Positions 36,415-55,077 of a DNA stretch of 64,000 bases are shown one piece after another (the first letter of the stretch is position 1; each line of letters opens with the position of its first letter). The stretch spans positions 21,611-85,610 of the forward strand of contig VBCA01000001.1 of NCBI GenBank assembly GCA_005881575.1, given 5' to 3'. This DNA is from Betaproteobacteria bacterium (GTDB lineage Bacteria > Pseudomonadota > Gammaproteobacteria > Burkholderiales > SG8-39). The position numbers were made by a program, and so were the translations under genes. Under the pieces are notes generated by a model. That model was given only the letters and a program-made list of their open reading frames with translations, had not been told where the DNA came from and searched no databases.

Positions 36415-36469
36415 GTCGGGATTTCAGCGCGGGAAAAGCGTGACAGGATATCACGCAGCGAGCTTCGTG

Positions 36470-36525
36470 ACGGCGTTTGATACCATAGGGATTCCGGTCT
36501 TCACCACGACGTGACGCTTTCGACC
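36470..36525 (+). repeat. 56-bp direct repeat, left copy (degenerate duplicate of the sulP 5' end)
   Basis: acggcgtttgataccatagggattccggtcTtcaccAcgacgtgacgcTttcgacc is 53/56 identical to 39496-39551. It retains GTG ACG CTT TCG ACC (MTLST), against the functional sulP start MTPST in the right copy. Confidence 0.85.
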
Positions 36526-36670
36526 TTTCCCTTCGATGATGCCGCTGGAAATGATCTGAACAACAAAGCGAAAGTCACGATGGGAGAATCCTATGGATTC
36601 CTTATCGTGTCACGGAACTGGCCCTATACCACTCACTTGGTACGTTGCCCGAACCGACTTACCACAAATT

Positions 36671-37981
36671 TTACTGACGAGGGTGTTTAAAGAAATGCTC
36701 TGCAATGGCCTTGGCAATGATGCCGTTTGCCAATTTATTATGGTGACCACTTTCCTCATAATACAGGCTAGCAAAGTCGCCAGGTTTCGGTTTCGCCATC
36801 GACTCAATTAAAACAGGTTCGGTATCAAGATAAGGTATTCCCCAACGTTCGATTTCTCTTATTAGGAATGCCTTTCGCCAGCCGCCGCCAGAAGTGGGGA
36901 CGAAGATTACGAAACGTAAATCGAGGCTGTTGGCGTTTGCCTCTTGCACGATTCCTTCAATTAGGCTTTTGCTAACCCGCTCTATTTCTCCTCGCCGATG
37001 CTCACTGTCCATTAAATTCCCACCCGTTTCTAGATACTCCGCAAACTGGACAAGGGCAGCTCCGAAATAGCTTGTTATTCCGACCGGATTTTTCTTGAGA
37101 TAGGAATCATTATTCGTTTCGACCGGGACGCCGCTTAGGACAAGCTCATTCTCTTTGATCAAGAAATATGGCTTGGGACGACTTCGATTTTTCATAATAC
37201 AGCGATCCAGGTCGACCGTAAGAATCCCAATAATGACCACAGGTTTCTTAAAATGGTCGTGAGATTGCTTAAATCGAAGATAGATTTGGTCCAAGCCATA
37301 ACCCGGTACACCGAAATTGTAGACTGTCTTACCCGGTAATAGGCTTTGCAATTGCTGAGGGATTTTATCCGCCATCAGCTTTCCAGCTCCAACAAAGGAA
37401 TCACCGTAAAACAATACACTCCCTTCCGTCGCTTCCAAAACATAAGGGGTATCGGCAATTACACCCAAGGGGTTCTGAGGGGTCCTTTTGTAAGCCCACC
37501 CCAAAATAGGATCGTACGCTAGCCCTGAACTGCTTCTTTGGAATTCGTTGAGATCGGCACTTTCGGCCATTTCCTTATCGATATTATCTAATCCCCATAC
37601 GATTCGAAGTTTGTAGTAATCGTCATCGGAAAGTACATTCGCATATAACCCAGGAGTACGAAACTTAGGGTGCCCAATGGCTATGCCGGTTCGAAGCGTG
37701 ATTTCCATTAACAGGGGACTCATTATGACAATACTAACAAGAAGGAGATTAAGATTCGCGACCAGATCCGTTCTCCGGTAGGTAATAGTGGTAAGCCCCC
37801 AACAGACCAGGATGAAAACAACGCTCCCCATCACAATTAGAACCAGTTCTCTATGCCTTGGAGAGATAGGTCCCAGTTGGTAAAGCAAAAAGTTTCTCAC
37901 AGGCAAAAATGCAACTGCGCCTCCCACAATCCATGTGACACCAATCAAAATGAGGACCTTTTCTCGGATACTTGTCTTCAT
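36671..37981 (-). CDS. membrane-anchored SGNH/GDSL-like hydrolase or acyltransferase (hypothetical)
   Basis: 436 aa with 3-4 N-terminal TM helices. Block I-like FYGDSFVGAG, block II-like NFGVPGYG and block V-like EESGHHNKLANGIIAKAI are present. AT-rich codon usage. Confidence 0.5.
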   Translation of the reverse strand: MKTSIREKVLILIGVTWIVGGAVAFLPVRNFLLYQLGPISPRHRELVLIVMGSVVFILVCWGLTTITYRRTDLVANLNLLLVSIVIMSPLLMEITLRTGIAIGHPKFRTPGLYANVLSDDDYYKLRIVWGLDNIDKEMAESADLNEFQRSSSGLAYDPILGWAYKRTPQNPLGVIADTPYVLEATEGSVLFYGDSFVGAGKLMADKIPQQLQSLLPGKTVYNFGVPGYGLDQIYLRFKQSHDHFKKPVVIIGILTVDLDRCIMKNRSRPKPYFLIKENELVLSGVPVETNNDSYLKKNPVGITSYFGAALVQFAEYLETGGNLMDSEHRRGEIERVSKSLIEGIVQEANANSLDLRFVIFVPTSGGGWRKAFLIREIERWGIPYLDTEPVLIESMAKPKPGDFASLYYEESGHHNKLANGIIAKAIAEHFFKHPRQ

Positions 37982-37990
37982 AAAACCACT

Positions 37991-39211
37991 TCAATTCCTT
38001 GAAAACACTTCAGGCAATTCTTTTATTAGAATTTCTGCAACAATCTTATTCCCCGACGGATTAAGGTGTCCATCGTGACTCCAATACAGATCCCTCAGGC
38101 GCAAATGACTCTCGCGAAAATGAAATGTTAGATCGATAAACCTAATGCCATCATGAGTGAGAAACTCTCGTAACTGTTCGTAGTATTTCGCGTCGGAATA
38201 CACCGTTTTGAAAGGCATAAGCACCATTACGAAGGGAATGTTATTCTCAGTTGCGAACTTCTTGAAGGCTAGGACTGCTTTCTTATTCTTAATCGCTTTT
38301 GGGTTATTACCATACCAATACTGTCCATTGCTGTCCATGTGGTCTCTATACTGTCCATTCGAGTCTTTATCGACAAAATACAAATTCCTAACCGAGGGCT
38401 TTTCGGCTGAAGCCGTCTCAGTCGAATCCGTCTTTTCTACCAACGATTTCACTAGATGTGCTGACAGCGAATATTGTCTGAGGAAATATTTGACTCTTTG
38501 CGACCATGTCCGTCCTTCCAGACTACGTCCTCGCAGACTAAGATCGAGTAACCTTTTATCAATGAATCTTCTTAATTCTATTTCCGGAATCTTCACACGC
38601 CTATCATCTTTATCAAGGCCTACATTATCCACTAGCCAACCATCCATTACAGTAGAATGAGGATAGGCATAGTCATTTGCAATATCATTCGCACAATAAA
38701 AAACAATTATCGCCTTAGGCAAAATTCCAATTTGTTCTACTATCTCAACGAATTTGTCGTATTGGTGTTGCTGGCCTGTATGTGTTACCCCGCATTTTAG
38801 TATTTGAGTGCCGGTCAAATTCTCGATTACAGTGCCAAATTTTTCATCGAAAGGTGCATACCCCCACGTATAACTGTCTCCCGTTAAATAAACATATTCT
38901 TCGTATTGAGCATGCTCTTTATCAAAGCAGCCTATTGAGTTCGACCAAATCGGATAAGTGATGCCATTTACCCAGTGATAGCCCTTTTTGTTTTTGCCAT
39001 TATCAAATCCTCTTTTTTCATGTTTTACAAAATAGCCTTTGGAAAAAGGACCTTGGATCCCAATATCCGGCGCAAGTGTGTCGCGTTGAAAATCCTCACG
39101 ATATTCATTGAAGTTAAGCGCATACTCATTAGGCAAGAAGAAGAACGTTATGACATCGAAAAATATGATGGTTAACAATACAAGTAAAAGAGTTAATAGG
39201 ATTTTCATCAT
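37991..39211 (-). CDS. membrane-anchored SGNH/GDSL-like hydrolase or acyltransferase (hypothetical)
   Basis: 406 aa with a single N-terminal TM (ILLTLLLVLLTIIFFDVITFFF). Block I LTGDSYTWGY, block III-like FYCANDIAND and block V-like WSHDGHLNPSGNKIVAEIL are present. The stop lies 9 nt before the next ORF's ATG. Confidence 0.55.
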   Translation of the reverse strand: MMKILLTLLLVLLTIIFFDVITFFFLPNEYALNFNEYREDFQRDTLAPDIGIQGPFSKGYFVKHEKRGFDNGKNKKGYHWVNGITYPIWSNSIGCFDKEHAQYEEYVYLTGDSYTWGYAPFDEKFGTVIENLTGTQILKCGVTHTGQQHQYDKFVEIVEQIGILPKAIIVFYCANDIANDYAYPHSTVMDGWLVDNVGLDKDDRRVKIPEIELRRFIDKRLLDLSLRGRSLEGRTWSQRVKYFLRQYSLSAHLVKSLVEKTDSTETASAEKPSVRNLYFVDKDSNGQYRDHMDSNGQYWYGNNPKAIKNKKAVLAFKKFATENNIPFVMVLMPFKTVYSDAKYYEQLREFLTHDGIRFIDLTFHFRESHLRLRDLYWSHDGHLNPSGNKIVAEILIKELPEVFSRN

Positions 39212-39495
39212 TTCTAGACGATCGGCGGTTTAAATCGTTTGTACAAACTAAAGCGGGATTTGAGTGATGGGAAAATCAATTTGGCTGTTGCCGGCGTCCC
39301 CTGCGGCTGAAACCTTGTAGCGCCGCCTGAGCGGTGCACCCGCACTCGGTTGCGCTCGATCCAGGTTGCCGGCGCGCGTTCGGCGGTCGGATCGACGCTC
39401 CCTGGGCGCTGCGTAACGGGCGTTGCGGCAAATCATGCAGTCGCCGGGCGCAGCAAGTCAAGCGCAGAGGCGCTCGCCTCGGAAAATCAATCGCA

Positions 39496-39551
39496 ACGGC
39501 GTTTGATACCATAGGGATTCCGGTCCTCACCCCGACGTGACGCCTTCGACC
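39496..39551 (+). repeat. 56-bp direct repeat, right copy (contains the sulP start codon and first 5 codons)
   Basis: 53/56 identical to 36470-36525. It includes the GTG at 39537. Confidence 0.85.
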
Positions 39552-41324
39552 GCATCGATCACTCCGCTCTCGCGGCGCTTGCTCCCGCTCCTCAGGTGGT
39601 GGCCGCGGGTCGACCGCGCAACGCTGAAGGCCGACGCGCTCGCGGGCCTCATCGGCGCCATCGTGGTGCTGCCGCAGGGCGTGGCGTTCGCGACTCTCGC
39701 GGGACTCCCTCCCGAGTACGGCCTGTACTGCGCGATGGTGCCCACCATCGTCGCGGCTCTGTTCGGCTCGTCCCTGCATACCGTCGCCGGCCCGACCAAT
39801 CCGGTCTCGCTCATGGTGTTCGCGGTGCTGAGCCCTCTCGCGACGCCGATGACCCCGCATTACATCGAGCTCGCCTTCACACTCGCCCTGATGTCGGGAA
39901 TCATCATGCTGGCGATGGGCCTTCTGCGGTTCGGGTCGCTGGTGAATTTCATGTCGAGCTCGGTCGTTGTCGGCTTCACCGCGGCGCTCGGCGTGTTCAT
40001 TTTCGCGAGCCAGCTCGGCAACTTTCTCGGCATCGCGTCGGCTCCGGCGGGGTTCGCCGGTCTGGTGCTCGCGACGCTCAGGCGCCTCGGCGACGCGCAA
40101 CCGTGGGTCATCGCCGTGGCAACCGCAACGATCGCGATCGGCGCGCTGTCGCGCCGCGTGCTGCCGAAAGTCCCGCCGATGCTGGCGGCGATGGTTTTGG
40201 GAAGCCTCATGGCCTACGTCATCAGCCATGCGCTCGGCGCGGAGCGCACGGGCCTGCGCACGCTCGGTCCGCTGCCCGGCGCGCTGCCGCCGCTCTCGTT
40301 CCCGGACGTCTCTGCGGCGACGCTGCAAAATCTCCTGCCGGGCGCAGTCGCCGTCGCGCTCGTGTCGCTGACGCAGGCGCTCTCGATCGCCCACGCCATC
40401 GCGCTCAAATCGGGACAGCGCCTGGACAACAACCAGGAATTCATCGCGCAGGGCCTTGCCAACGTCGCCGCGGCGTTCTTCTCGGGCTTTCCGACGAGCG
40501 CCTCAGCCAACCGTTGCGGCATCAACTACGACGCGGGCGCGAAGACGCCGATGTCGGCGATATTTTCCGCGCTGCTGCTGGTGCTCGTGCTCCTCGCGGT
40601 CGCGCCGCTCGTCGCCTACCTGCCGATCGCGGTCGTCGCGGGGCTGCTTTTCCTCGTCGCCTGGAACCTGATCGACTTTCGGCGCATCCGGAAGATCCTC
40701 GCGACGAGCCGCGGAGAGAGCGCGGTGCTCGCGGTCACCTTCTTTGCGACGCTCCTGCTCGACCTCGAGTTCGCGATCCTCGTGGGCGTGCTCGTCTCGT
40801 TGGTGTTGTACCTCAATCGCACATCCCACCCGATCCTGCGCAGCCTCGTGCCCGATCCGCGCCATACCGGGCGCAAGATGACGGAGGTCGAGGACAGCCT
40901 GCTCGAGTGCCCCCAGCTCAAGATCCTGCGCATCGAGGGCTCGATCTACTTCGGCGCGGTCGGCCACGTGGAGCGGCACCTCGACACGCTGCGCGAGCAC
41001 AGTCCCGGCCAGAAGCACCTGCTCCTCATGTCGAAGAGCATCAATTTCGTGGACATGGCGGGCGCCGAGCTGCTCGTGGAGGAAGCGCGCAGGCGGCGCG
41101 CGCTCGGCGGGGAGCTCTACTTCTACAGCCTGAGGAAACCGGCGGAGGAGCTGCTCGAGCGCGGCGGCTACATGGCGGAGCTCGGCCGCGAAAACGTCTT
41201 CCGCGGCAAGCGCGAGGCGATCGGCGGGGTGTTCACGCGGCTCGACCTCTCGATCTGCGCCACCTGCCGCGCGCGCATTTTCGAGGAGTGCGCGAGCGTG
41301 CCCGGACCCGGGGAGGCGGGATGA
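39537..41324 (+). CDS. sulP: SulP-family anion (sulfate/bicarbonate) permease with C-terminal STAS domain
   Basis: 595 aa with the SulP N-terminal motif (ADALAGLIGAIVVLPQGVAFATLAGLPPEYGLY) and a STAS domain (LKILRIEGSIYFGAV...LLLMSKSINFVDMAGAELL). Confidence 0.85.
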   Translation: MTPSTASITPLSRRLLPLLRWWPRVDRATLKADALAGLIGAIVVLPQGVAFATLAGLPPEYGLYCAMVPTIVAALFGSSLHTVAGPTNPVSLMVFAVLSPLATPMTPHYIELAFTLALMSGIIMLAMGLLRFGSLVNFMSSSVVVGFTAALGVFIFASQLGNFLGIASAPAGFAGLVLATLRRLGDAQPWVIAVATATIAIGALSRRVLPKVPPMLAAMVLGSLMAYVISHALGAERTGLRTLGPLPGALPPLSFPDVSAATLQNLLPGAVAVALVSLTQALSIAHAIALKSGQRLDNNQEFIAQGLANVAAAFFSGFPTSASANRCGINYDAGAKTPMSAIFSALLLVLVLLAVAPLVAYLPIAVVAGLLFLVAWNLIDFRRIRKILATSRGESAVLAVTFFATLLLDLEFAILVGVLVSLVLYLNRTSHPILRSLVPDPRHTGRKMTEVEDSLLECPQLKILRIEGSIYFGAVGHVERHLDTLREHSPGQKHLLLMSKSINFVDMAGAELLVEEARRRRALGGELYFYSLRKPAEELLERGGYMAELGRENVFRGKREAIGGVFTRLDLSICATCRARIFEECASVPGPGEAG

Positions 41325-41923
41325 CTCTCCGCCGCACCGCGGTTTTTCTGCTCGCGCTGCTCGCGGCCTGCGGCGGCCAGCCGAAGCTCCCTCCCCTCGC
41401 ACCGAACGCGGTGGTGCTCGCCTTCGGCGACAGCCTGACCTTCGGGATCGGTGCGAACGCGGGCGAAAGCTATCCGGCGCGGCTCGAAGCGCTGATCGCG
41501 CGCAAGGTGGTGTCGGCGGGCGTTCCGGGAGAAGCGAGCGCCGAAGGGCTTGTGCGCCTGCCCGCTGCGCTCGACGAGGCCAAGCCGCAGCTCGTCATCC
41601 TCTGTCACGGCGGCAACGATTTCCTGAGAAAGCTCGACGAGGCGCAGGCGGCGAACAACATCCGCGCCATGGTGCGCCTCGCGAGAAGCCGGGGTGCTCA
41701 GGTCGTGCTCATCGGCGTTCCCAAGCCCGGCCTGCTCCCTTCGCCCGCGGGCTTCTACGCGGATATCGCAAGGGAATTTCGCCTGCCCTACGAGGAGACG
41801 GCGCTGAAGAAGATCCTCACCGACAACGCTCTGAAGTCCGATCTCGTTCATCCGAACGCGGCCGGCTACGCGCGGCTCGCGGAAGCGATCGCCGCGCTTC
41901 TGAGGAAAACCGGGGCGGTGTGA
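41321..41923 (+). CDS. SGNH/GDSL arylesterase-like lipoprotein (TesA-like)
   Basis: Only the last 603 nt of track ORF 39596..41923 are used. The ATG at 41321 overlaps the sulP stop (ATGA). Lipobox LLAAC is present. Block I is AFGDSLTFG, block III is HGGNDF and block V is DLVHPNAAGY. Confidence 0.75.
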   Translation: MTLRRTAVFLLALLAACGGQPKLPPLAPNAVVLAFGDSLTFGIGANAGESYPARLEALIARKVVSAGVPGEASAEGLVRLPAALDEAKPQLVILCHGGNDFLRKLDEAQAANNIRAMVRLARSRGAQVVLIGVPKPGLLPSPAGFYADIAREFRLPYEETALKKILTDNALKSDLVHPNAAGYARLAEAIAALLRKTGAV

Positions 41924-42256: not shown

Positions 42257-42661
42257 CTATCTCGCGCCGAGCAGCCGCGACGTCCGCGCGATGTCCTTGG
42301 GCTTCACCCAGAAAATCGCGCCGAAGCGGCGGTTGCCCGCGGTCACCGCGTCCATCGCGACCATGTTGATTTTCGCCTTGGCGAGCTTATCGAGGACGCG
42401 GAGAAGCGCGCCGACGCGGTCCTCGCCCTGGACCAGAAACGCCGTTTTCCGTTTGCCCAGATTCACGCGGTGCTTCTTCGCCCCCTTGGCGAATTGCACC
42501 GGATTGGCGGGAACGAAGTCTACCTGTGCCTTGCCGCCCTGGGGAAACCCGGTGAAGGCGAGCAGATTTTGCTTGCCCATGGCGATCGATTTCAGCATTT
42601 GCAGGCCGATGCCCGGGCGGTTCGGTACTTTCATCGAAAAATAAACGACTTTTCGGATCAT
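42257..42661 (-). CDS. small conserved hypothetical protein (possibly ACT-like regulatory fold)
   Basis: This is the tail of track ORF 42257..43597 in its real frame. The ATG at 42661 overlaps the upstream stop (ATGA) and follows CAGGAGGGA. Sequence MIRKVVYFSMKVPNRPGIGLQMLKSIAMG...GEDRVGALLRVLDKLAKAKINMVAMDAV. Confidence 0.45.
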   Translation of the reverse strand: MIRKVVYFSMKVPNRPGIGLQMLKSIAMGKQNLLAFTGFPQGGKAQVDFVPANPVQFAKGAKKHRVNLGKRKTAFLVQGEDRVGALLRVLDKLAKAKINMVAMDAVTAGNRRFGAIFWVKPKDIARTSRLLGAR

Positions 42662-43767
42662 GGTCCCTCCTGTGGTGTGTCGCCGAACCGGTATTGTCCT
42701 ACGAAGCGACGGTCGATGCGATCCTTCCAGCGCCACACCCAGGCACCTTCCAGGGCGAGTCCTCCCCAGGAGGCCACAGCGTAACGATCGCCGCAGCTGA
42801 TGAGCGCGAGCGAGCGCGAGGGCGGGCGGAAGCGTTCGGGGGCTTCGCCCGCGAGCGCGCGGCGCAGGTTGCGCGCGAGAACCGGCCCCTGCCTCACGGC
42901 GAAAACCCCGGATTTCGGCCTGGGCTCGTCGATCACGGTCGCGACGTCCCCCGCGGCGAATATCTCGGGCCGCGACCGCGATTGCAGCGTTTCGCTCACC
43001 GCGAGAAAGCCCCGCGCGTCGGTGGCGAGCCCGCTCTGCGCGATCCACGAAGGGGCGTACGCTCCGGTTGCCCATACCGCGGCCTGAGCCTCGAAGCGCC
43101 CGCCGCCATCGAGCTCGATCCCGTTTTCGCCGGCGGCAATGACCTTTCGGCCGAAGTGCACCGGGACGCCGCGAGCGCCGAGGATGCGAGCGATACGGCG
43201 GCGCGCGCCGTGTCCGGCGAGGATGGGCAGCTCGCTGAACAGCGCGAATTGCGCGGCGGATCCGGCGAGTCCGTGCCGCATGGCGAGCAGCACCTCGACC
43301 CCGGCCGCGCCGCCGCCGATCACGGCGATGCGCCGCACCTCGCCCCTCCTCGCCCGCTCGCGCAGCCGTTCCCAGCCCGCGAGAAACGGCTCGACCGGGC
43401 GGACACGGAGAGAGTGTTTTGCGGCGGCGGCCGGATCGCCGGCGCTCGACCCGGTGTCGAAGGACAGGATGTCGTAGCGAAGACGCTCGCCCCGGGCGGT
43501 GGTCACCTCGCGCCGCGCGGCATCGACGCCGGCCGCGGAGTCCAGGAGAAAGCGCGCGCCTGCGCGCGCGGCGAGCGCTCCGAGATCGATGCGGCAATCC
43601 TCGGACCGGTAGTGCCCCGCGACGACGCCGGGAACCATGCCCGAGTAGAAAGCGTGGCGGCTCGGACTCAGCAAGGCAAGGTGAACGCCCTCGGCCGGCG
43701 CATCGCCGAAGCTTTTCAGTACAGCGAGATGGCTGTGCCCTCCGCCGACGAGAAGAAGATGTTTCAC
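42658..43767 (-). CDS. FAD-dependent pyridine nucleotide-disulfide oxidoreductase-family protein (type found fused N-terminally to SelD)
   Basis: 369 aa with dinucleotide-binding N-terminus MKHLLLVGGGHSHLAVLK and a second Rossmann motif IAVIGGGAAGVE. It resembles the NDH-2-like family that, as I recall, is described as Nterm_to_SelD. Confidence 0.7.
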   Translation of the reverse strand: MKHLLLVGGGHSHLAVLKSFGDAPAEGVHLALLSPSRHAFYSGMVPGVVAGHYRSEDCRIDLGALAARAGARFLLDSAAGVDAARREVTTARGERLRYDILSFDTGSSAGDPAAAAKHSLRVRPVEPFLAGWERLRERARRGEVRRIAVIGGGAAGVEVLLAMRHGLAGSAAQFALFSELPILAGHGARRRIARILGARGVPVHFGRKVIAAGENGIELDGGGRFEAQAAVWATGAYAPSWIAQSGLATDARGFLAVSETLQSRSRPEIFAAGDVATVIDEPRPKSGVFAVRQGPVLARNLRRALAGEAPERFRPPSRSLALISCGDRYAVASWGGLALEGAWVWRWKDRIDRRFVGQYRFGDTPQEGP

Positions 43768-43843
43768 CGGGTCCTGGACGGGTGTTGGGTCATTCTAACA
43801 GGCGTGATACACTTCTGACGGTTTGTATCTCAGCAGACAGGTT

Positions 43844-44110
43844 ATGCCCAAATCCCTCCGACTGGGAACCGAGCTGGAGAAGACGCTCGAGCGCTACTGC
43901 ACCGAGACCGGGGAGACGAAGAGTGCCGTCATCCGTCAGAGCTTGGCGGAATATATCGCCCGCCGCCAACGCAAGCGGCGCGCACCTTCCGCGTGGGAAC
44001 TAGGCAAAGACTTGTTCGGCGCCGACCGCTCCGCGGCGGGGCAAGGCAACGTCTCGGGGCGGGTCAAGACGCTGATCCGCGCGAAGCTCCGTGCGAAACA
44101 TCATCGTTGA
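43844..44110 (+). CDS. vapB: ribbon-helix-helix antitoxin (VapB/CopG-like)
   Basis: MPKSLRLGTELEKTLERYCTETGETKSAVIRQSLAEYI is a classic RHH N-terminus. The gene overlaps the downstream PIN gene by 20 nt. The track start at 43823 (TTG) is an alternative. Confidence 0.75.
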   Translation: MPKSLRLGTELEKTLERYCTETGETKSAVIRQSLAEYIARRQRKRRAPSAWELGKDLFGADRSAAGQGNVSGRVKTLIRAKLRAKHHR

Positions 44111-44492
44111 TACGGGGCCGCTCGTTGCGCTGTTTCACGCCCGCGACAAGCACCACGAGGCGGCCAAAGCCGTTCTCGAATCGAACCCGGCGGCATTGGT
44201 AAGCACCTGGCCCGTAATCGCCGAGGCCTGCCACTTCCTCGCTGAGGCCGGGAGGCGCGCGCTGCTTACTTTTGTCCGTCGCGGCGCATTGCGTCTGGAA
44301 GCTCTTTCAGTTGAAGATGTGCCGCAACTCGATGAGCTGCTCGCGCGCTACGAGCGGATGGATTTCGCCGACGCCACGCTCGTGCTGATCGCGGAAAAGA
44401 CCGGGATCACCGAGATATTCACGATAGACCGCCGCGATTTCGAGGTGTACCGGACGCGTTCGGGTCGCCGACTCCGCCTGCTGCTGGCATAA
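44091..44492 (+). CDS. vapC: PIN-domain toxin (VapC)
   Basis: 133 aa with N-terminal IIVDTGPLVALF containing the catalytic Asp, a mid-protein acidic residue context and C-terminal DFADATLV. Confidence 0.8.
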   Translation: MRNIIVDTGPLVALFHARDKHHEAAKAVLESNPAALVSTWPVIAEACHFLAEAGRRALLTFVRRGALRLEALSVEDVPQLDELLARYERMDFADATLVLIAEKTGITEIFTIDRRDFEVYRTRSGRRLRLLLA

Positions 44493-45120
44493 AGCTCTCC
44501 TGCATCTCTTGCGGGAGGCGCTCGAGATCTTCGGGACGGTCTACGTCCCACAGGGCGGGAAGTTCGCTCAGGCGCCAGCCGAGCGCGGCAATGCGACGGC
44601 GGGTCTCCGGCAAAACCTTTGGGCCGCCCCAGGGAATGCCGCGAAACAGTTCGGGATCGCAATGCGAAAGGCCGACCAGCACGTACCCACCGTCTTCCGC
44701 CGGCCCGATCACGGCGTCATCGCCGCCGGCAAGGGCCCGTTCTGCGTCGCGGAGGTATTGCGCCGAAAGCGCAGGGATATCACTGCCGATCAGGATCGCG
44801 CGAGCGGCGTGCACGAGCGCCGACTCGAACGCGCGCTGCATGCGCGCGCCCAGATCGCCCTCGCCCTGCGCCCAGAGACTGATCCCGAGTCGGCGCTCGC
44901 ATTCGCGGAAGAAGGGATCACTCGTATCGGGCGCGCACCACAGCTCGACCGGCCCGAGCCGCGAATCCCTCGCCGCGCGCAGGCAGTGCATCACGAGCCG
45001 GCGATGCAGAGCGCCGGCGCCCGCGGCGCCGAGCGCCGGAATCAGCCGGGTCTTGGCCTCGCCCGGCGCCTTCGCGAAAACCATCACCGGGCAGACGGTG
45101 TCAGCCGCGCTCGCCGTCAT
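44419..45120 (-). CDS. DUF2064 / rSAM-selenodomain-associated transferase 2-like protein
   Basis: 233 aa with VMVFAKAPGEAKTRL...IGSDIPAL...GPAEDGGYVLVGL...WDVDRPEDL (nucleotidyl-transferase-like fold of the DUF2064 family). The last ~25 codons run antisense through the vapC 3' end. Confidence 0.7.
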   Translation of the reverse strand: MTASAADTVCPVMVFAKAPGEAKTRLIPALGAAGAGALHRRLVMHCLRAARDSRLGPVELWCAPDTSDPFFRECERRLGISLWAQGEGDLGARMQRAFESALVHAARAILIGSDIPALSAQYLRDAERALAGGDDAVIGPAEDGGYVLVGLSHCDPELFRGIPWGGPKVLPETRRRIAALGWRLSELPALWDVDRPEDLERLPQEMQESFMPAAGGVGDPNASGTPRNRGGLS

Positions 45121-45787
45121 AGAGGCGGGCCAGCTTGGCGGGAGCGGCGCCGAAGAAAAACGCGAGGCGCAGCCACGCCATCAGCAGCACCGTGCGCAGG
45201 ACCCCGCGGCGCTCCCAGCGCCGGCCCGACGTGACCGCCTTGTCCGCGAGACACAGCGGCCGCGACACGCGCTTGAGCGAGCGCGACAGCGCGATGTCTT
45301 CCATCAGCTCGAGTGGCGGGAAGCGCCCGGCGCCCTCGAACGCCTCGCGCCGGACGAAGATGGCCTGATCGCCGGTGGCGATTCCGGTCGCGCGCGAGCG
45401 CAGGTTCATGAAAAACGCGATCACGGGTAGGCAGAGGCTGGCGCCTTCGATGCGCACGTCGAACCGCCCCCATGCCTTGCCGCTCGCGGCGAGCCCCTGC
45501 AGGACGCTCGCGTCGGCATTTTCCGGAAGGCGCGTGTCGGCGTGAAGGAATAGGAGGACTTCACCGCGCGCGAGCGCCGCTCCCGCGTTCATCTGGCTCG
45601 CGCGACCGCGCGCTGCCGAGGCGACGCGATCCGAGGCGCGACGCGCGAGAACCGCAGTGTCGTCGCTCGAGCCGCCGTCGACGACGATCACTTCGTGACC
45701 GCGCTGGCGCAGCGATGCGAGCCCCGCGAGCTCCGCGGCAATCCCTTCCGCCTCGTTCAGCGCCGGGACGATGATCGAAATCCTCAA
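45101..45787 (-). CDS. family-2 glycosyltransferase, rSAM-selenodomain-associated transferase 1-like
   Basis: (M)RISIIVPALNEAEGI...VIVVDGGSSDDT. The proposed TTG start at 45787 overlaps the upstream stop (TTGA). The track start at 45820 (GTG) is an alternative. Confidence 0.7.
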   Translation of the reverse strand: MRISIIVPALNEAEGIAAELAGLASLRQRGHEVIVVDGGSSDDTAVLARRASDRVASAARGRASQMNAGAALARGEVLLFLHADTRLPENADASVLQGLAASGKAWGRFDVRIEGASLCLPVIAFFMNLRSRATGIATGDQAIFVRREAFEGAGRFPPLELMEDIALSRSLKRVSRPLCLADKAVTSGRRWERRGVLRTVLLMAWLRLAFFFGAAPAKLARLYDGERG

Positions 45788-47931
45788 CCGCGCCTCCACG
45801 CGTGGAACTTCTCCGCCCACTTGAGCAGCCCCTGCGGGGCGTGCGCTCTCTTCCAGCTGCCCGCCGCGTACTTGTTGCCCTCGGCGAGCGTGGGGTAGAT
45901 GTGGATGGTGCCGAGGATCTTGTTGAAGCCGATGCCGTGCTTCATCGCCGTGATGAATTCGACGATGAGATCGGCTGCGTGTTCCCCGGCGATCGTTGCG
46001 CCGAGGATCCTGTCCTTGCCGGGCACGGTGAGGACTTTCACCACTCCTGTCGTCTCCCCGTCGGCGATCGCGCGGTCGAGGTCTTCGAGACGGTAGTTAG
46101 TGACGTCGTAAGCGACGTTTTTCTCCCTGGCCTCGGTTTCGTTCAACCCTACGCGCGCGACCTCGGGATCGGTAAACGTCGCCCAGGGGATCACCGAGTA
46201 GTCGGCGCGAAATCTCTTCACTCCGCCGAAGAGCGCGTTCACCGCCGCGTACCAGGCCTGGTGCGAGGCAGTATGCGTAAACTGATACGGGCCGGCGACA
46301 TCGCCGCAGGCGTAGATGTTGGGATAGAGGGTCTGCAGGTATTCGTTCGTGCTCACAGTGCGCGCGCGGCTCAATTCGATGCCGAGCTCCTCCAGGCCGT
46401 ACCCCTCGGTATTGGCGACGCGCCCGACCGCGCACAGCAGCTCGTCGAACGGGATGCGGACCTCGCTGCCGTCGTTCTCGCACAAAAGCAGCTTCTCGCC
46501 GCCCTCCCGGAGTACGCGCACCGCCTTGTGATCGGTGCGGACGTCGATGCGCTCCTCGCGGAACTGCCGCGCGACCATCTCGGAGATCTCCGGGTCTTCC
46601 CGGATCAGGATGCGCGGAAGCATCTCGACCTGCGTCACGCGCGATCCGAACCTCGCGAAGCACTGGGCGAGCTCGCAACCGATCGGCCCTCCCCCGAGGA
46701 CGATCAGCCGCGGCGGCAACGCCCTCAGGTTCCAGACCGTATCCGAGGTGAGGCAACCGATTTCGGCGAGCCCGGGGATCGGCGGCACGAAGGGCTGCGC
46801 GCCCGCGGCGATGACGATCGCCCGGGTGGTGAGCACGCGCCTGCCCGTTTCGCTCTTCACCTCCACCGTCCAAGGCGAGGTGATTTTTGCCTCGCCCTGC
46901 AGGCATTCGACGCCGAGCTCGGTGTAGCGCTCGGCCGAGTCGTGCGGCTCGACGGTTCTCACCACGCGCTGCACGCGCTCCATGACGTCGGCGAAATCGA
47001 AGTCGACCTGCATGGCCCTGAAGCCGAATTCGCGGGGGCGCTTCGCCTGCGCCACGAGCCGCGCCGACTTGATCAGGGCCTTCGAGGGCACGCAGCCCGT
47101 GTTGAGGCAGTCCCCGCCCATCTTGTCCTTCTCGATCAGCGTCACTTTCGCCTTGACCGCGGCCGCGATGTAAGCCGACACCAGACCGGCGGAACCCGCG
47201 CCGATCACGACGAGGTTGCGGTCGAATCTGGCCGGCTTCGGCCATCTCGCAAGACGCCGGCGCGCTTTGGCGGACTCGATGACGTACCTCGCGACGAGCG
47301 GAAATATGCCGAGCAGCGCGAGCGAGCCGATCAGCGCCGGGGAAAGGATCCCCGAAATCGATTGGATGGTCGCAAGCTGCGTACCCGCGTTCACGTAAAC
47401 GATCGTGGCGGGAAGCATGCCGATCTGGCTCACCCAGTAGAACGTCCGGGCCCGGATCGGCGTGAGCCCCATGAGGAGATTGACTACCACGAACGGAAAC
47501 GCCGGCACCAGCCGCAGGGCGAACAAGTAGAACGCCCCCTCCTTCTCCAGGCCCGCGTCGATCGCCCGCAGTCTGTCCCCGAAGCGGTCCCGCACCAGGT
47601 CGCGAAACAGAAAGCGGGAGGAGAGAAAGGCGAGCGTTGCGCCGATGCTCGAGGCGAACGACACGACCAAGGTACCCCACAAGAGCCCGAATATCGCGCC
47701 GACCGCGAGCGACAGCACCGCCGCCCCGGGCACCGACAGGCCGGTGACGGCGACGTAGATCGCGAAAACGATTCCGGCGGCTGCGAGCGGATTCGCCCGC
47801 CGGAATTCCTCGATCGCCGACTGCTGTGACTTGAAATATTCGAGCTGCAGGTACTGGCCGAGGTCGAGCGCGAAAAACGCCGCGATCAGGCCAAGGACAA
47901 GGGCCGCAACGAGCAGCCGGCGACGCGACAT
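45784..47931 (-). CDS. fusion protein: DedA/VTT (TVP38/TMEM64) membrane domain + pyridine nucleotide-disulfide oxidoreductase (mercuric reductase/dihydrolipoamide dehydrogenase-like)
   Basis: Trimmed to the ATG at 47931 (MSRRRLLVAALVLGLIAAFF...). The N-terminal ~230 aa form a VTT-type membrane domain. Next come VVIGAGSAGLVSA and the redox-active disulfide GGDCLNTGCVPSK, followed by a C-terminal dimerisation domain. Confidence 0.8.
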   Translation of the reverse strand: MSRRRLLVAALVLGLIAAFFALDLGQYLQLEYFKSQQSAIEEFRRANPLAAAGIVFAIYVAVTGLSVPGAAVLSLAVGAIFGLLWGTLVVSFASSIGATLAFLSSRFLFRDLVRDRFGDRLRAIDAGLEKEGAFYLFALRLVPAFPFVVVNLLMGLTPIRARTFYWVSQIGMLPATIVYVNAGTQLATIQSISGILSPALIGSLALLGIFPLVARYVIESAKARRRLARWPKPARFDRNLVVIGAGSAGLVSAYIAAAVKAKVTLIEKDKMGGDCLNTGCVPSKALIKSARLVAQAKRPREFGFRAMQVDFDFADVMERVQRVVRTVEPHDSAERYTELGVECLQGEAKITSPWTVEVKSETGRRVLTTRAIVIAAGAQPFVPPIPGLAEIGCLTSDTVWNLRALPPRLIVLGGGPIGCELAQCFARFGSRVTQVEMLPRILIREDPEISEMVARQFREERIDVRTDHKAVRVLREGGEKLLLCENDGSEVRIPFDELLCAVGRVANTEGYGLEELGIELSRARTVSTNEYLQTLYPNIYACGDVAGPYQFTHTASHQAWYAAVNALFGGVKRFRADYSVIPWATFTDPEVARVGLNETEAREKNVAYDVTNYRLEDLDRAIADGETTGVVKVLTVPGKDRILGATIAGEHAADLIVEFITAMKHGIGFNKILGTIHIYPTLAEGNKYAAGSWKRAHAPQGLLKWAEKFHAWRRG

Positions 47932-47944
47932 GGTGCGCGCCGCT

Positions 47945-48904
47945 TCAGGCCGCGCGCGAGAAAGCGCCCGTCCGCACGGCCTGCTCCACCTCGTACCCCG
48001 GACCGGAAGCGATGCGCTTGCGATACGAGAGCGCGGCGGGCGAGCCTGCGGGCCAGACGCGGTCGAATCGCGCCATCCACGCTTCGTGGTCGTAGCGCAC
48101 GGGAACGGCTTCGACGACCGTCGCTCCGAGCCGCGCCCCGTAGAGCGCCTGCGCCGAGGGTGTGCTCGCGATGCGCGTCGCGAGGCCGAAACGCGTGTCG
48201 CGGAAATTCGGCATTCCGGCGGCGCCGTTGTTGACGATGAGCGCCTTCCCGCGCGGCGCATCGAATTCCCGCATCACCGGCAGGCAGGTATGCGTACAGG
48301 CAAAGACGTCGACGCCGGATCCGGCGAGCAGCGCCGCCGCGCGTTCGGGACGCTCGCGCAGCGCCTCCTGCGAGAACTGCCAGCCGGCGAGCGATTCGGC
48401 GTCGCCGTGCACGATGCCGATGCGCAGGCCCGCGATTTCCGCGACGAGGTGCATGGGCAGGACGCCGAGGCGCTCGCGCAATTCCGGATACGCGCTTGCG
48501 GTCCCGCGCAATCGCGTGAGAATCTCGTTCGAGCGCCCCACTTCGGCCTCGCCCACCCATTCGGGGTAGGCGCAGCCGCAGCCCGCGCCGGAATCCTCGC
48601 CGGCGATCTCGGTCTCCACGTTGCCGCGCACGGCCGCGTGCCGAAGGACAGTCTCGTTGATGCTTTCGAATTCCGCCGGGTCGACGTTGAACCAGTTGAA
48701 ATCGCCGTTGAAGGCGAGCGTCGCGCCCTCCCGCCGCGCCATGGCAAGGACCGCTTCGAGCGCGAAGGGATTGCCGTAGAGTCCGCCGACGATGAAGAGG
48801 GATTGCGCCCTGAGTTCTGCGGCGCGCGCGAAGACCGCAGGCGAGTAACGGTAGTGGCGCGGACAGGACCGGCCGGGCCGCGTTCTAGCCATCGAGCGCG
48901 CCAC
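47945..48904 (-). CDS. metallophosphoesterase-like protein
   Basis: 319 aa with calcineurin-like motifs (FIVGGLYGN, FNGDFNWFN, GIVHGDAESL, CTHTC). It overlaps the upstream radical-SAM gene's end by 20 nt. Confidence 0.6.
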   Translation of the reverse strand: MARSMARTRPGRSCPRHYRYSPAVFARAAELRAQSLFIVGGLYGNPFALEAVLAMARREGATLAFNGDFNWFNVDPAEFESINETVLRHAAVRGNVETEIAGEDSGAGCGCAYPEWVGEAEVGRSNEILTRLRGTASAYPELRERLGVLPMHLVAEIAGLRIGIVHGDAESLAGWQFSQEALRERPERAAALLAGSGVDVFACTHTCLPVMREFDAPRGKALIVNNGAAGMPNFRDTRFGLATRIASTPSAQALYGARLGATVVEAVPVRYDHEAWMARFDRVWPAGSPAALSYRKRIASGPGYEVEQAVRTGAFSRAA

Positions 48905-49841
48905 CGCAGCTCGAGCCCTGCCCGGCCGTGCACCCGAAGCAATGGTCCTTCACCACGATCGGGTTGCCGGCGAGGTCGCGGCCGACGAGATCGGCGAGCC
49001 TGACCCGCTGCCGGCCCGCGATTCTGAGAGGCAGACCCAGCATCTGGTTGAAATCGCAGTCGTAGACCGTGCCCTGCCAGTCAACCGAGATCAGGGTACG
49101 ACACATCACGGCGCCCAGATTCTCCTCGCGGTAGGACTCCTGCAGCAGCTTCATGTAGGCGTTGAACTGTCCCCTGGAGATGAGCGTCGAGCCGAATCGG
49201 GCGATCGGCATATTGGCGAGCGTGTAGAGCCGGTTGAAGCGGATGCCGAAACGCTCGCCCAGCACCCGCTTGTAATCTGCCTCGAGCTTTTCCTGCGGGG
49301 GCGGGAGCGAAGCTCCTTGAGGGTTGTACACGAGGTTGAGCGCGAGGCGCGAGCCCTCCACTGCGTAGCCGAGCGCGTTGAGACACCGAAGAGCACGAAT
49401 GCTCGTCTCGTATACGCCTTTGCCGCGCTGCCTGTCGACCAGCTCCTCCGTGTAGCAGGGAAGCGAGGCTATGATCTCGACGTCCTCGCGCGCGAGAAAC
49501 TCCGCGAGGTCCTCCTGGCCGGGCTCTTCGAGAACGGTGAGATTGCAGCGGTCGATCACGTGCGCGCCGAGCGCGCGGGCGCGCTCGACCAGCTCCCTGA
49601 AATGCAGATTCAACTCGGGCGCGCCGCCGGTAACGTCGAGCGTGCGGACGCCCGAGGCCTCGAGGTAGCGCAGCACGGTATGCACCGTCTCGCGGTCCAT
49701 CTCCTCAGTGCGCGTGGGACCCGCGTTGACGTGGCAGTGCACGCAGCTCTGGTTGCATTTGTAGCCGAGATTGACCTGGAGCGTCTCGAGACGCTCGCGG
49801 CGTATTCCTGGAAAGTTTGAGACTTCGAGGAGAGGGAGCAT
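48885..49841 (-). CDS. radical SAM / Cys-rich domain protein (ArsS-like; Cys variant of the 'selenodomain' family)
   Basis: MLPLLEVSNFPGIRRERLETLQVNLGYKCNQSCVHCHVNAGP contains the CxxxCxxC cluster. The C-terminal Cys-rich tail is HCFGCTAGQGSSCGGALDG. The track start at 49916 is an alternative. Confidence 0.75.
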   Translation of the reverse strand: MLPLLEVSNFPGIRRERLETLQVNLGYKCNQSCVHCHVNAGPTRTEEMDRETVHTVLRYLEASGVRTLDVTGGAPELNLHFRELVERARALGAHVIDRCNLTVLEEPGQEDLAEFLAREDVEIIASLPCYTEELVDRQRGKGVYETSIRALRCLNALGYAVEGSRLALNLVYNPQGASLPPPQEKLEADYKRVLGERFGIRFNRLYTLANMPIARFGSTLISRGQFNAYMKLLQESYREENLGAVMCRTLISVDWQGTVYDCDFNQMLGLPLRIAGRQRVRLADLVGRDLAGNPIVVKDHCFGCTAGQGSSCGGALDG

Positions 49842-50053
49842 CGCGTGCACGGGCGGTTCTCCTTCTCCTCTATCTGGCGCCGGCGAGCTGTACGGGCGGG
49901 CACTTGACGGAACCATAAGCGGCCGCGGCGATGAGCGCTCCGAAGCTGCCGACCTTTTCAGGATGAGTTTTCATCGTGCGCATGCTAGAGGATACACCGT
50001 GCAAGTGTGCCAAACGGCGTCGTAACCTTTCGTCGTACGGAATCCGTGCTTGC

Positions 50054-50446
50054 TTACATTTTCTGCATGGCCCAGAGCGTATCCAGGTCCCGAAGCAGGT
50101 ACAGCGTGATGCATGCGGCGAGCATCGGCCACGCGGCGAAGAAGAGCAGATTGTCGAGCGGTGCTAGATATTGCTGATAGGACGAGAGCGTCGAGATCGC
50201 ATGAAGCAGCAGCACCAGCCCGTAGGTGTAGCGCTTGGCGGTCCCCGTCACGAAACCGACCAGCAACAGCAGCTCAAGAGCGGCGATGACGTAGAACACA
50301 GTCGGGGAAATGCCGTCGATGCCGTAGAACTTCTTGAAGATCCCGGCAGCGTGTCCCGGGCGGATGAACTTGTCGAGCGTCCACATCAGCATAACGATGA
50401 AGACGCCGATGCGAAGCAGAAAGAGCGGCAGGCGAATGCGGTCCAT
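50054..50446 (-). CDS. DoxX-like small membrane protein
   Basis: 130 aa with 4 TM helices. The size and topology match the DoxX/DoxD-like family. Confidence 0.5.
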   Translation of the reverse strand: MDRIRLPLFLLRIGVFIVMLMWTLDKFIRPGHAAGIFKKFYGIDGISPTVFYVIAALELLLLVGFVTGTAKRYTYGLVLLLHAISTLSSYQQYLAPLDNLLFFAAWPMLAACITLYLLRDLDTLWAMQKM

Positions 50447-54198: not shown

Positions 54199-55077
54199 TC
54201 ACCCGGCAAGGAACCATCCGGTCGCGCCCAGCCACCCCGCTGTCGCCGCGATCAGGTGCGGATTGCGCAGCATCTCCCAGGCGGGATCACTGCCGCCCCC
54301 CTTCGAATACACGACTTGCAGGTACCGAAACAAGCCGTACAGCACGAACGGAAACGTGAGAAAGAGCCGGTCGGTGCGATGCAGGGCTATGGTGTCCGGG
54401 TCCACGGTGTACAGCGCGTAGCCGAGCGCGGCGCAAGCGACGCTGACCGCGATCAGGCAATCGAGCAGCGGCATGCTGTAGCCGTCGAGCGCGACGCGAT
54501 GCCCGCTCCCTGAATTCGCGGGGTCGGTCACCGCGAGCAGTTCGGCCCGCCGCTTGCAGAAGCCGAGAAACAGAGTGAGCATGAGGCCGCAGAGCAACAG
54601 CCAGTTCGACGGGGGAATGCCGATTCCCGCGGTGCCTGCGAGGATGCGCAGCATGAATCCGCCGGCGATCATGAACACATCGAGAATCGCCACGCGCTTG
54701 AGCCCGGCGCTGTATCCGATGTTGAGTACGATATAGGCGGCGGCGACCAGCAGCGCCGCAAGCGAGACGGCGGCCGCGAGGGCGACCCCGGCCAGCGCGA
54801 GGGCGATGCACAGCGCGATCGGGACGCCCAAGCCGATCTCGCCCCGCGCCAGCGGCCGCTCGCGCTTGTACGGATGCACCCGGTCGGCATCCCGGTCGGC
54901 GATGTCGTTGAGGATATACACCGCGCTCGAGGCGAGGCAGAAGGCGACGAACAAGACGAGCGCTTCCGCGACCAGCCTTGCGTCGTTCCATCCGTGGCCG
55001 AAAACCACGCCGATGAAAAGGAACCCGTTCTTGATCCACTGGTGGGGGCGCATCAGGCGGATGAGGGCGCTGGTCAT
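54199..55077 (-). CDS. UbiA-family prenyltransferase, decaprenyl-phosphate phosphoribosyltransferase-like
   Basis: 292 aa with LMRPHQWIKNGFLF and the Asp-rich motif YILNDIADRDADRVHPYKRERPLA, as in DPPR synthase (Rv3806c-type) homologues. Confidence 0.7.
   Translation of the reverse strand: MTSALIRLMRPHQWIKNGFLFIGVVFGHGWNDARLVAEALVLFVAFCLASSAVYILNDIADRDADRVHPYKRERPLARGEIGLGVPIALCIALALAGVALAAAVSLAALLVAAAYIVLNIGYSAGLKRVAILDVFMIAGGFMLRILAGTAGIGIPPSNWLLLCGLMLTLFLGFCKRRAELLAVTDPANSGSGHRVALDGYSMPLLDCLIAVSVACAALGYALYTVDPDTIALHRTDRLFLTFPFVLYGLFRYLQVVYSKGGGSDPAWEMLRNPHLIAATAGWLGATGWFLAG

Follow-up and report, generated by a model that had tools for sequence, protein, structure and literature searches.

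An ArsS-type radical SAM gene cluster without a neighbouring arsM in a Burkholderiales bacterium, and its conserved candidate partners

We analysed a 64-kb stretch of DNA from a Betaproteobacteria bacterium (Burkholderiales, SG8-39; contig VBCA01000001.1, positions 21,611 to 85,610), which we call the window, and in it a cluster of genes around an enzyme of the radical S-adenosylmethionine (SAM) class that belongs to the ArsS family. (Coordinates are window positions unless another locus is named.) Seven minus-strand genes with a high GC content at third codon positions lie between positions 42257 and 49850. The five upstream genes overlap or lie no more than 13 nt apart. They encode the radical SAM enzyme, a divergent protein with a metallophosphoesterase fold (MPE), a fusion of a DedA/VTT membrane domain to a disulfide reductase that binds flavin adenine dinucleotide (FAD), a GT2-fold transferase, and a DUF2064 transferase; beyond them lie a TIGR03169 flavoprotein and a small ACT-domain protein (Table 1). 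Families were assigned by profile searches against NCBIfam and Pfam, with the scores read against the curated cutoffs, and the matches to TIGR04167, TIGR04283, TIGR04282, and TIGR03169 each exceed theirs. An earlier note, made from the letters of the sequence alone, had described five tightly packed minus-strand genes, and this is borne out: all of the open reading frames are present on the strands that it gave. We consider it very likely that the region is a member of the ArsS-type clusters.

The radical SAM and MPE genes overlap by 8-20 nt, depending on the choice of the MPE start, which may be ATG 48892 (315 amino acids, as in its relative P0121/L121). The MPE gene and the DedA fusion gene are separated by 13 nt. 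The stop codon of the fusion and a TTG start of the GT2 gene at 45787 overlap in the sequence TTGA, or the overlap is 37 nt if the GT2 gene begins at GTG 45820; the GT2 and DUF2064 genes then overlap by 20 nt. Further downstream, the stop of the TIGR03169 gene and the start of the ACT gene overlap in ATGA, so the translational coupling of an NDH-2-like oxidoreductase to an ACT-like protein that the earlier note described is seen. A scan for promoters and terminators gave no signal above the shuffled expectation.

Table 1. Features of the cluster and its surroundings, in the direction of transcription of the radical SAM gene (scores in bits, curated cutoffs in brackets)
Feature	Position	Strand	Profile matches or remarks
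130-aa membrane protein, 5' of the radical SAM gene	50054..50446	-	Neighbour, no conserved cluster member
ArsS-family radical SAM enzyme	48885..49850	-	TIGR04167 457.9 (300); PF12345/DUF3641 185.6
Divergent metallophosphoesterase-fold protein (MPE)	47945..48904	-	Metallophos_2 28.6 (27), marginal; no NCBIfam family
DedA/VTT + class-I FAD/NAD(P)H disulfide reductase fusion	45784..47931	-	PF09335 80.6; PF07992 205; PF02852 97
GT2-fold transferase, TIGR04283 family	45101..45820	-	TIGR04283 266.9 (182); PF00535
DUF2064 / TIGR04282 CofC-like (nucleotidyl)transferase	44419..45120	-	TIGR04282 194.7 (134)
PIN-domain (VapC-like) toxin	44091..44492	+	PF01850 44.6 (23.6)
VapB/RHH-like antitoxin candidate	43823..44110	+	RHH, VapB, and PSK_trans_fac matches, all sub-threshold
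NDH-2/SQR-like flavoprotein, TIGR03169 "Nterm_to_SelD"	42658..43767	-	395.4 (310)
Small ACT-domain protein	42257..42661	-	PF01842 28.3 (27)

The radical SAM protein covers positions 2-303 of the 303 positions of the TIGR04167 model. It has the cluster motif CNQSCVHC and a C-terminal DUF3641 domain that ends in HCFGCTAGQGSSCGG; from this motif and the cysteine-rich tail, the earlier note had called the protein TIGR04167-like, and the profile scores agree. Across 81 radical SAM sequences, the HCxGC..GSSC motif and seven cysteines outside the cluster motif are invariant. The gene more likely starts at GTG 49850 than at ATG 49841, because the GTG start gives a protein of 321 amino acids, as in the homologues (the ATG start would give 318), and because it has a good ribosome binding site, GGAGAAGGAGAA, upstream. 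A search of PDB sequences found no ArsS structure.

Some members of this family contain selenocysteine (Sec). Among 84 family representatives with a complete C-terminal region, 11 end just before the last cysteine of HCxGCTAGxGSSC, and therefore this cysteine marks the Sec position. A GxxU selenoprotein motif has been published for TIGR04167 (PMC13188914), and it matches the point at which these 11 sequences end. The equivalent residue in the window protein is Cys315, so the earlier suggestion that the window has a cysteine version of the enzyme holds, with the cysteine of GSSC standing where other members have Sec. Sec or cysteine is a residue of the enzyme and gives no information on the substrate.

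The two transferases that the earlier note had recognised also fall into the expected families, and they lie in one operon with the radical SAM gene. The DUF2064 protein resembles a putative nucleotide-diphospho-sugar transferase of known structure (PDB 3cgx; 1.3e-16), with CofC more distant, and the secondary matches of the GT2 protein include glucosyl-3-phosphoglycerate synthase. In other loci, the DUF2064/TIGR04282 domain is fused to an APH-family kinase (PF01636; L086:1386-2897, and also in L087 and L093). This arrangement is typical of an anomeric sugar kinase with a nucleotidyltransferase, and by analogy it hints at the role of DUF2064. Routes that run through an anomeric sugar kinase, a nucleotidyltransferase, a GT2 transferase, and a phosphatase include AmgK-MurU and GpgS-GpgP (glucosylglycerate). 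The cluster resembles these routes in its CofC/MobA-like fold (as in 3cgx), its GT2 protein, its partner with a phosphoesterase fold, and the APH fusions of its relatives. In contrast to them, it has no kinase in the window and its phosphoesterase lacks the canonical metal ligands.

To see which genes travel with the radical SAM gene, we scanned one genome per species and obtained 80 related loci (L001-L080) in which the radical SAM proteins are 68-90 % identical, each locus being seen as ±10 kb around the match. Nearly all of these loci are from uncultured Burkholderiales or Betaproteobacteria, and the gene cluster is widespread in uncultured Burkholderiales of soil and water. Clustering of open reading frames and mapping of the window proteins gave a consensus order: the radical SAM gene, a variable slot, the DedA/FAD fusion, DUF547, GT2, DUF2064, DUF3047, and TIGR03169. 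For 48 of the loci, 8 kb or more of downstream sequence follows the radical SAM gene, and partners were counted in these. The most frequent are GT2 (46 of 48), the DedA/FAD fusion (45), DUF2064 (40), and DUF547 (36), followed by MPE (26), DUF3047 (19), TIGR03169 (15), the arsenite methyltransferase ArsM (7), and an SSS-like transporter (6). The partners are thus conserved with the radical SAM gene across related loci. Where the TIGR03169 gene is present, it comes immediately after DUF2064 or DUF3047 in the same orientation, as a distal member that recurs in the cluster. The ACT gene directly follows DUF2064 in L003 and L004, the two nearest long relatives.

In the window, a plus-strand pair (43823-44492) separates the DUF2064 and TIGR03169 genes. 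The earlier note took it for an inserted vapBC pair. We call it vapBC-like, and we agree that it is an insertion, because TIGR03169 directly follows the cluster in 15 of the 48 loci. The pair is unique to the window in this comparison: a VapB/RHH-like gene is missing at this position in 80 of 80 related loci, and a PIN gene was found among the relatives only in L039, at a different position. The antitoxin candidate and the PIN gene overlap by 20 nt, and the 3' ends of vapC and the DUF2064 gene overlap convergently by 74 bp. The TIGR04282 match ends at residue 199 of the 233 residues of the DUF2064 protein, 34 residues before the present stop, and the last ~30 residues, which are read into the 3' end of vapC, are probably not native. 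Furthermore, the 64 kb contain no gene for DUF547 (PF04784), DUF3047 (PF11249), or the SSS-like transporter. The window holds a reduced, somewhat eroded copy of a conserved system.

At the other end of the cluster, the earlier note had listed, upstream of the radical SAM gene, a membrane protein that it called DoxX-like. This family assignment is unsupported, as the scores are below threshold (DoxX PF07681, 12.7 bits vs 23.6; MauE, 19 vs 27), and we rejected the gene as a cluster member; it occurs in 1 of the 80 loci. A metagenomic contig (L121) is 96.3 % identical in DNA sequence to window positions 47431-49866, and synteny ends at 49866 (L121:1287), which implies a recombination breakpoint at the 5' end of the operon. 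Upstream of this point, L121 has a CMD/AhpD-like gene in place of the DoxX/MauE-like gene. Genes of the CMD family also occur close to the radical SAM gene in 8 further loci, and there is an ArsS-CMD fusion (P0303).

The link to arsenic comes from the relatives. In 12 of the 80 related loci, an ArsM gene lies in the variable slot or adjacent to the cluster genes. Eleven of these loci encode a 324-aa methyltransferase of the NF038099 type (549-553 bits; cutoff 400) between the radical SAM protein and the DedA/FAD fusion, which is the position of MPE in the window; the twelfth, L075, has a different ArsM after the radical SAM gene. (A regular expression for SAM methyltransferases gave 3 matches and missed the NF038099 type, which was recovered by tblastn with the ArsM of L075.) A search of 1.84 billion representative proteins yielded 716 family clusters at E<=1e-30, and among them are fusions of ArsS to ArsM, in the order ArsS-ArsM (P0260, P0274, P0301, and P0343) or ArsM-ArsS (P0336, P0337, and P0348). 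Other ArsS fusions include P0250, with an N-terminal domain that looks by eye like a flavin reductase, and P0249 and P0258, each with a large extension that has no Pfam match.

In the metagenomic surroundings of such fusions, some distant clusters (L086, L087, and L115) contain both MPE and ArsM. The cluster in L086 begins with the DUF2064-APH kinase, two VTT/DedA genes, a TIGR04283 GT2 gene, DUF6037, an HdrD-like Fer4/CCG protein, and ArsS, and it continues with a C_GCAxxG_C_C protein, an SSS-like transporter, MPE, a MIP aquaglyceroporin, an ArsM-like methyltransferase, and a rhodanese. In L095, an ArsS-ArsM fusion is accompanied by a PiT-like transporter, a VTT gene, GT2, and an FAD reductase.

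Among the 80 close relatives, the contents of the variable slot have a mosaic distribution. When the radical SAM proteins of L001-L080 are placed on a neighbour-joining tree, the types with ArsM in the slot and those with MPE (with or without the SSS-like transporter) interleave among near neighbours, such as L074/L079, L078/L067, and L045-46/L071. The slot has therefore been exchanged repeatedly.

The MPE-like protein is the least familiar member of the cluster. A phosphoesterase had been proposed as an extra partner, and its frequency in the related loci agrees with this. It is also found fused to the N terminus of ArsS in P0284 and P0302, with every invariant MPE motif kept, and because of these fusions we regard it as a dedicated partner of ArsS. 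A Metallophos_2 match at E<=0.01 is found in 13 of 33 MPE relatives, and PDB searches with the single sequence and with a profile found no sequence relative. A model of the protein made with AlphaFold2 on the shallower of our alignments (A2) has a metallophosphoesterase fold (pLDDT 71, pTM 0.78); its segments 1-17 and 95-113, which hold C14, C109, and C111, are of low confidence. The nearest structures are PH1004, the Ap4A hydrolase SapH, LpxH, and Rv0805, and the probability is 1.00 for 2gju, 3qfm, and LpxH. The predicted overall fold is thus that of calcineurin-like metallophosphoesterases such as SapH, LpxH, and Rv0805 (Foldseek E of 4e-8 to 1e-4; TM-scores of 0.64-0.67 for the best matches, normalised to the target).

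The active site of MPE is a different matter. The invariant motifs of the family are GRxCP, GGLYGN, FNGDFxWF, RGNVExE, GCGCxYP, HGD, xHxC, and NNGAAGMPNF. The GD, GN, HGD, and xHxC motifs of calcineurin-like enzymes are kept, but in all 33 of the aligned members, DxH of motif I is replaced by GGLYGN and GNHE by RGNVE, with valine in place of the histidine. MPE thus lacks a complete dinuclear metal site (D-x-H and G-N-H-(D/E)), and, unlike the calcineurin-like enzymes, it has four invariant cysteines (C14, C109, C111, and C207). Across distant lineages, MPE and the SSS-like transporter form a tight adjacent pair (L097, L098, L082, L085-L087, L093, L094, L103, L110, and L117). In L098, whose flank on the far side runs to ~10 kb, and in L097, a shorter contig, the pair stands without an ArsS gene in the sequence at hand.

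The fusion of DedA to a reductase, which the earlier note had also singled out, is real and is one of the most conserved partners. Its N-terminal 220 residues contain about 5-6 hydrophobic segments, and the VTT domain spans residues 71-184 (cutoff 33.9 bits). Residues 239-713 form a class-I pyridine-nucleotide disulfide reductase with GGDCLNTGCVPSK, a CLNTGC redox-active pair, and a His-Glu dyad (HxxPTxxE); such a dyad is typical of disulfide reductases. In the PDB, it comes closest to MerA (best, 5x1y, 1.2e-74) and to dihydrolipoyl dehydrogenases, and like them it has an FAD domain, an NAD(P)H domain, the CxxxxC pair, and a domain for dimerisation. We rejected an identity as MerA: the TIGR02053 score is 381.7 bits vs 454.45, the His-Glu dyad is kept, and the protein has no C-terminal cysteine pair (it ends in ...KFHAWRRG). 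It also differs from MerA in having no NmerA domain and in having the DedA/VTT membrane domain at its N terminus. Other profiles are below their cutoffs as well (NF004991, 510 bits vs 620; Lpd, 396 vs 409). From its motifs, we assign the flavoprotein as a disulfide reductase tethered to a DedA domain. The second flavoprotein, of the TIGR03169 family, has no SelD domain (TIGR04369, 230.8 bits vs 700).

What does this cluster do? ArsS adenosylates DMAs(III), a trivalent dimethylated arsenical, to 5'-deoxy-5'-dimethylarsinoyl-adenosine, or DDMAA, in a redox-neutral reaction (PMC13598754). After that, enzymes that were not named take off the adenine and derivatise the ribose (bioRxiv 10.64898/2026.04.29.721666). 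In Synechocystis, arsS is co-transcribed with arsM (bioRxiv 10.1101/2022.09.23.509062). Experimental demonstration so far covers the first chemical step only, in a cyanobacterium.

The arsM-arsS genes of Synechocystis sp. PCC 6803 reportedly form an arsenosugar pathway, as Xue et al. in 2019 and Cheng et al. in 2021 are said to have described. The window enzyme is like the Synechocystis ArsS in being a TIGR04167 equivalog and in its CxxxCxxC motif and cysteine-rich DUF3641 domain. Whereas the unit in Synechocystis is an arsM-arsS pair, the window gene sits with MPE-like, DedA-flavoprotein, GT2, and DUF2064 genes and without arsM. This kind of system is already known, because NCBIfam labels TIGR04167, TIGR04283, TIGR04282, and the ArsM family NF038099 as arsenosugar biosynthesis. 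Three of these four families are in the window operon, and NF038099 is not; NCBIfam has no arsenosugar-specific model for MPE-like, DedA-FAD, and TIGR03169, nor for DUF547, DUF3047, and the SSS-like transporter of other loci. Gene context appears to be the basis of the NCBIfam "glycosyltransferase" names, and we found no experimental paper behind them.

The earlier note had left the product unknown and the element open among selenium, arsenic, and sulfur. That part can now be narrowed: the adjacency and fusion of ArsM in the relatives point to arsenic, and the NCBIfam names of the radical SAM protein and of both transferases point to arsenosugars. Its statement that the biochemistry is uncharacterised still holds beyond ArsS. 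Judging from the sequences, arsenic is likely to be the substrate in the source organism. The explanation that we favour, and lean towards accepting, is that the operon is a reduced copy, lacking arsM, of a conserved ArsS-type "arsenosugar" operon of Burkholderiales.

If so, the following scheme can be proposed. ArsS would cleave SAM and place the 5'-deoxyadenosyl radical on a trivalent dimethylated arsenical held by the cysteine-rich C-terminal domain, forming 5'-deoxy-5'-dimethylarsinoyl-adenosine; we assign this chemistry because of the equivalog-level family membership and the linkage to arsM in relatives. As the operon has no arsM, methylated arsenic would have to be supplied by the environment or by an arsM at another place in the genome. 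A housekeeping methylthioadenosine (MTA) nucleosidase or phosphorylase could take off the adenine; the cluster has no such gene. Going by its fold and by the fusions to an APH-type kinase, the CofC-like DUF2064 protein would then turn 5-arsinoyl-ribose-1-phosphate into a nucleotide-sugar, and the GT2 protein could move the arsenoribosyl group to a membrane acceptor, such as glycerol phosphate or a lipid head group. MPE, whose nearest structures are nucleotide pyrophosphatases, might cleave a phosphate or pyrophosphate ester or deliver the arsenical, a step that we propose only tentatively because its metal site is degenerate. The DedA domain may handle the lipid-linked species, with the fused disulfide reductase and the TIGR03169 flavoprotein providing reducing power, so that the arsenical would be kept trivalent or the Cys/Sec sites reduced. 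In anaerobe-like L086, the Fer4/CCG and C_GCAxxG_C_C proteins may have the reducing role. This specific downstream scheme is tentative and may well be wrong.

Several observations weigh against our favoured explanation. In the window, we found no arsM (by tblastn with ArsM), no ars genes, and no aquaglyceroporin gene; the earlier note had likewise stated that no arsM or ars genes are adjacent to the cluster, and when about 40 of the window's candidate genes, which number roughly 47, were scanned with Pfam, no ars or sel genes came up either. Linkage to an arsenite methyltransferase is thus a property of the 12 related loci and of the fusions, and is not seen within the 64 kb. Furthermore, ArsM and MPE never share a locus among the 80 close relatives, so clusters of the MPE type could use another substrate. 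(This exclusion could also reflect an alternative supply of the arsenic substrate, or, equally, genomes of the MPE type could have arsM elsewhere.) The missing DUF547, DUF3047, and SSS-like transporter genes and the DUF2064 tail altered by vapBC could indicate partial decay. The loss of DxH and of the catalytic histidine of GNHE may mean that MPE is not a hydrolase, and the role of the flavoproteins is a conjecture because the ArsS reaction needs no external reductant. Finally, our literature searches found no experimental work on any proteobacterial cluster member or on either transferase family. They also found no study of the TIGR04282 or TIGR04283 transferases, the MPE-like family, the DedA-flavoprotein fusion, DUF547, DUF3047, or TIGR03169 in the context of the cluster, and no demonstration of arsenosugars in Burkholderiales.

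Some of these observations would fit a role in salvage or detoxification instead. In this case, the starting material would be methylated arsenic from the environment and not arsenite. Species such as DMAs(V) and MAs(V), which are common in soils, would be reduced to the trivalent form by the membrane-anchored DedA-flavoprotein and/or TIGR03169 and then locked by ArsS and the transferases into a harmless riboside or lipid, and MPE, alone or with the SSS-like transporter, would be an input module alternative to ArsM. The single slot that ArsM and MPE share without ever co-occurring in the 80 loci, and the repeated swapping implied by the tree, are as expected, as are the tight SSS-MPE pair of distant lineages, the lack of any arsM match in the window, and the conservation of two reductase-type flavoproteins around an enzyme whose reaction is redox-neutral. 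However, L086, L087, and L115 have both MPE and ArsM, so the two are not simple alternatives; arsM may lie elsewhere in the genome; no member of this class of flavoproteins is known to reduce methylarsenicals; and the window has no SSS-like transporter. We consider this explanation unlikely. A more specific proposal, which we would put as a long shot, is that the cysteine-rich MPE, which is usually accompanied by the SSS-like transporter, is not a phosphatase but an arsenic-input module that can substitute for ArsM and that, with the membrane-anchored DedA-flavoprotein as the reductase that has long been sought for pentavalent methylarsenicals, would support the salvage of DMAs and MAs into membrane arsenosugar lipids in heterotrophic soil Burkholderiales. 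If it were true, the formation of arsenosugars or arsenolipids would be widespread in non-photosynthetic bacteria and would not require arsenite methylation in the same cell.

The substrate might also be a chalcogen: an ArsS-like enzyme could adenosylate a selenium, tellurium, or sulfur nucleophile to give a seleno- or thio-sugar conjugate. The family includes selenoproteins (PMC13188914), with 11 of 84 representatives stopping at the Sec position, the TIGR03169 domain is fused to SelD in other organisms, and no arsM was found in the window. Yet a Sec or cysteine residue is not evidence for the substrate, and the window protein has cysteine in any case. Furthermore, neither the window nor the conserved neighbours showed selD, selA, or selB, the sole methyltransferases linked or fused to the family are of the ArsM type, and distant clusters include an aquaglyceroporin and a PiT-like transporter, all of which makes a chalcogen very improbable. 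Similar reasoning applies to a metalloid-independent pathway for a cofactor or nucleotide-sugar, of the F420 or mycofactocin type, in which a CofC-like enzyme and an MftF-like GT2 protein would work with the radical SAM enzyme. This would be suggested by secondary matches of the TIGR04282 protein to CofC (36.5 bits), of GT2 to MftF (39.4), and of the radical SAM protein to the mycofactocin maturase (58.5), but these are far below the cutoffs (105, 280, and 265 bits) and below the family-specific matches. There are no genes for a precursor peptide or for F420 nearby, and such a pathway would not account for the recurrent linkage and fusion to ArsM; we give it hardly any credence.

Other features of the window lie outside the cluster. 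Downstream of the ACT gene and on the opposite strand are a SulP/STAS anion transporter (39537-41324) and an SGNH/GDSL hydrolase (about 41318-41923), a pair that is syntenic in L004 only. Beyond them is an island of low GC content (36000-39500; about 0.50 vs about 0.65 elsewhere), which was probably acquired horizontally. Its two large minus-strand open reading frames, 36671-37981 (436 aa) and 37991-39211 (406 aa), have a GC3 of 0.40-0.46 and show only faint similarity to SGNH/GDSL proteins. On the other side of the cluster, just past a cNMP-binding gene, a UbiA-family prenyltransferase (54199-55077) adjoins a PMT_2/ArnT-like glycosyltransferase (55082-56560). These two may form a separate pair for lipid-linked glycosylation, and they show no conservation with the ArsS cluster.

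The organoarsenic compounds of algae and seafood are mainly arsenosugars and arsenosugar lipids. To our knowledge, enzymes have been named for only the first two steps of arsenosugar biosynthesis, methylation by ArsM and adenosylation by ArsS. The near-universal core of these clusters (ArsS, the DedA/disulfide reductase, GT2, and DUF2064) provides candidates for the later steps and for the supply of trivalent arsenic. So do the exchangeable ArsM or (SSS-)MPE modules and the fusions of MPE to ArsS, of ArsS to ArsM, and of DUF2064 to a kinase. Among thousands of copies, the one in the window is ordinary and somewhat eroded, and what is of value is not the locus but the hypotheses at the level of the family and the partner genes. 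The sequences suggest that uncultured heterotrophic Burkholderiales take part in arsenosugar chemistry.

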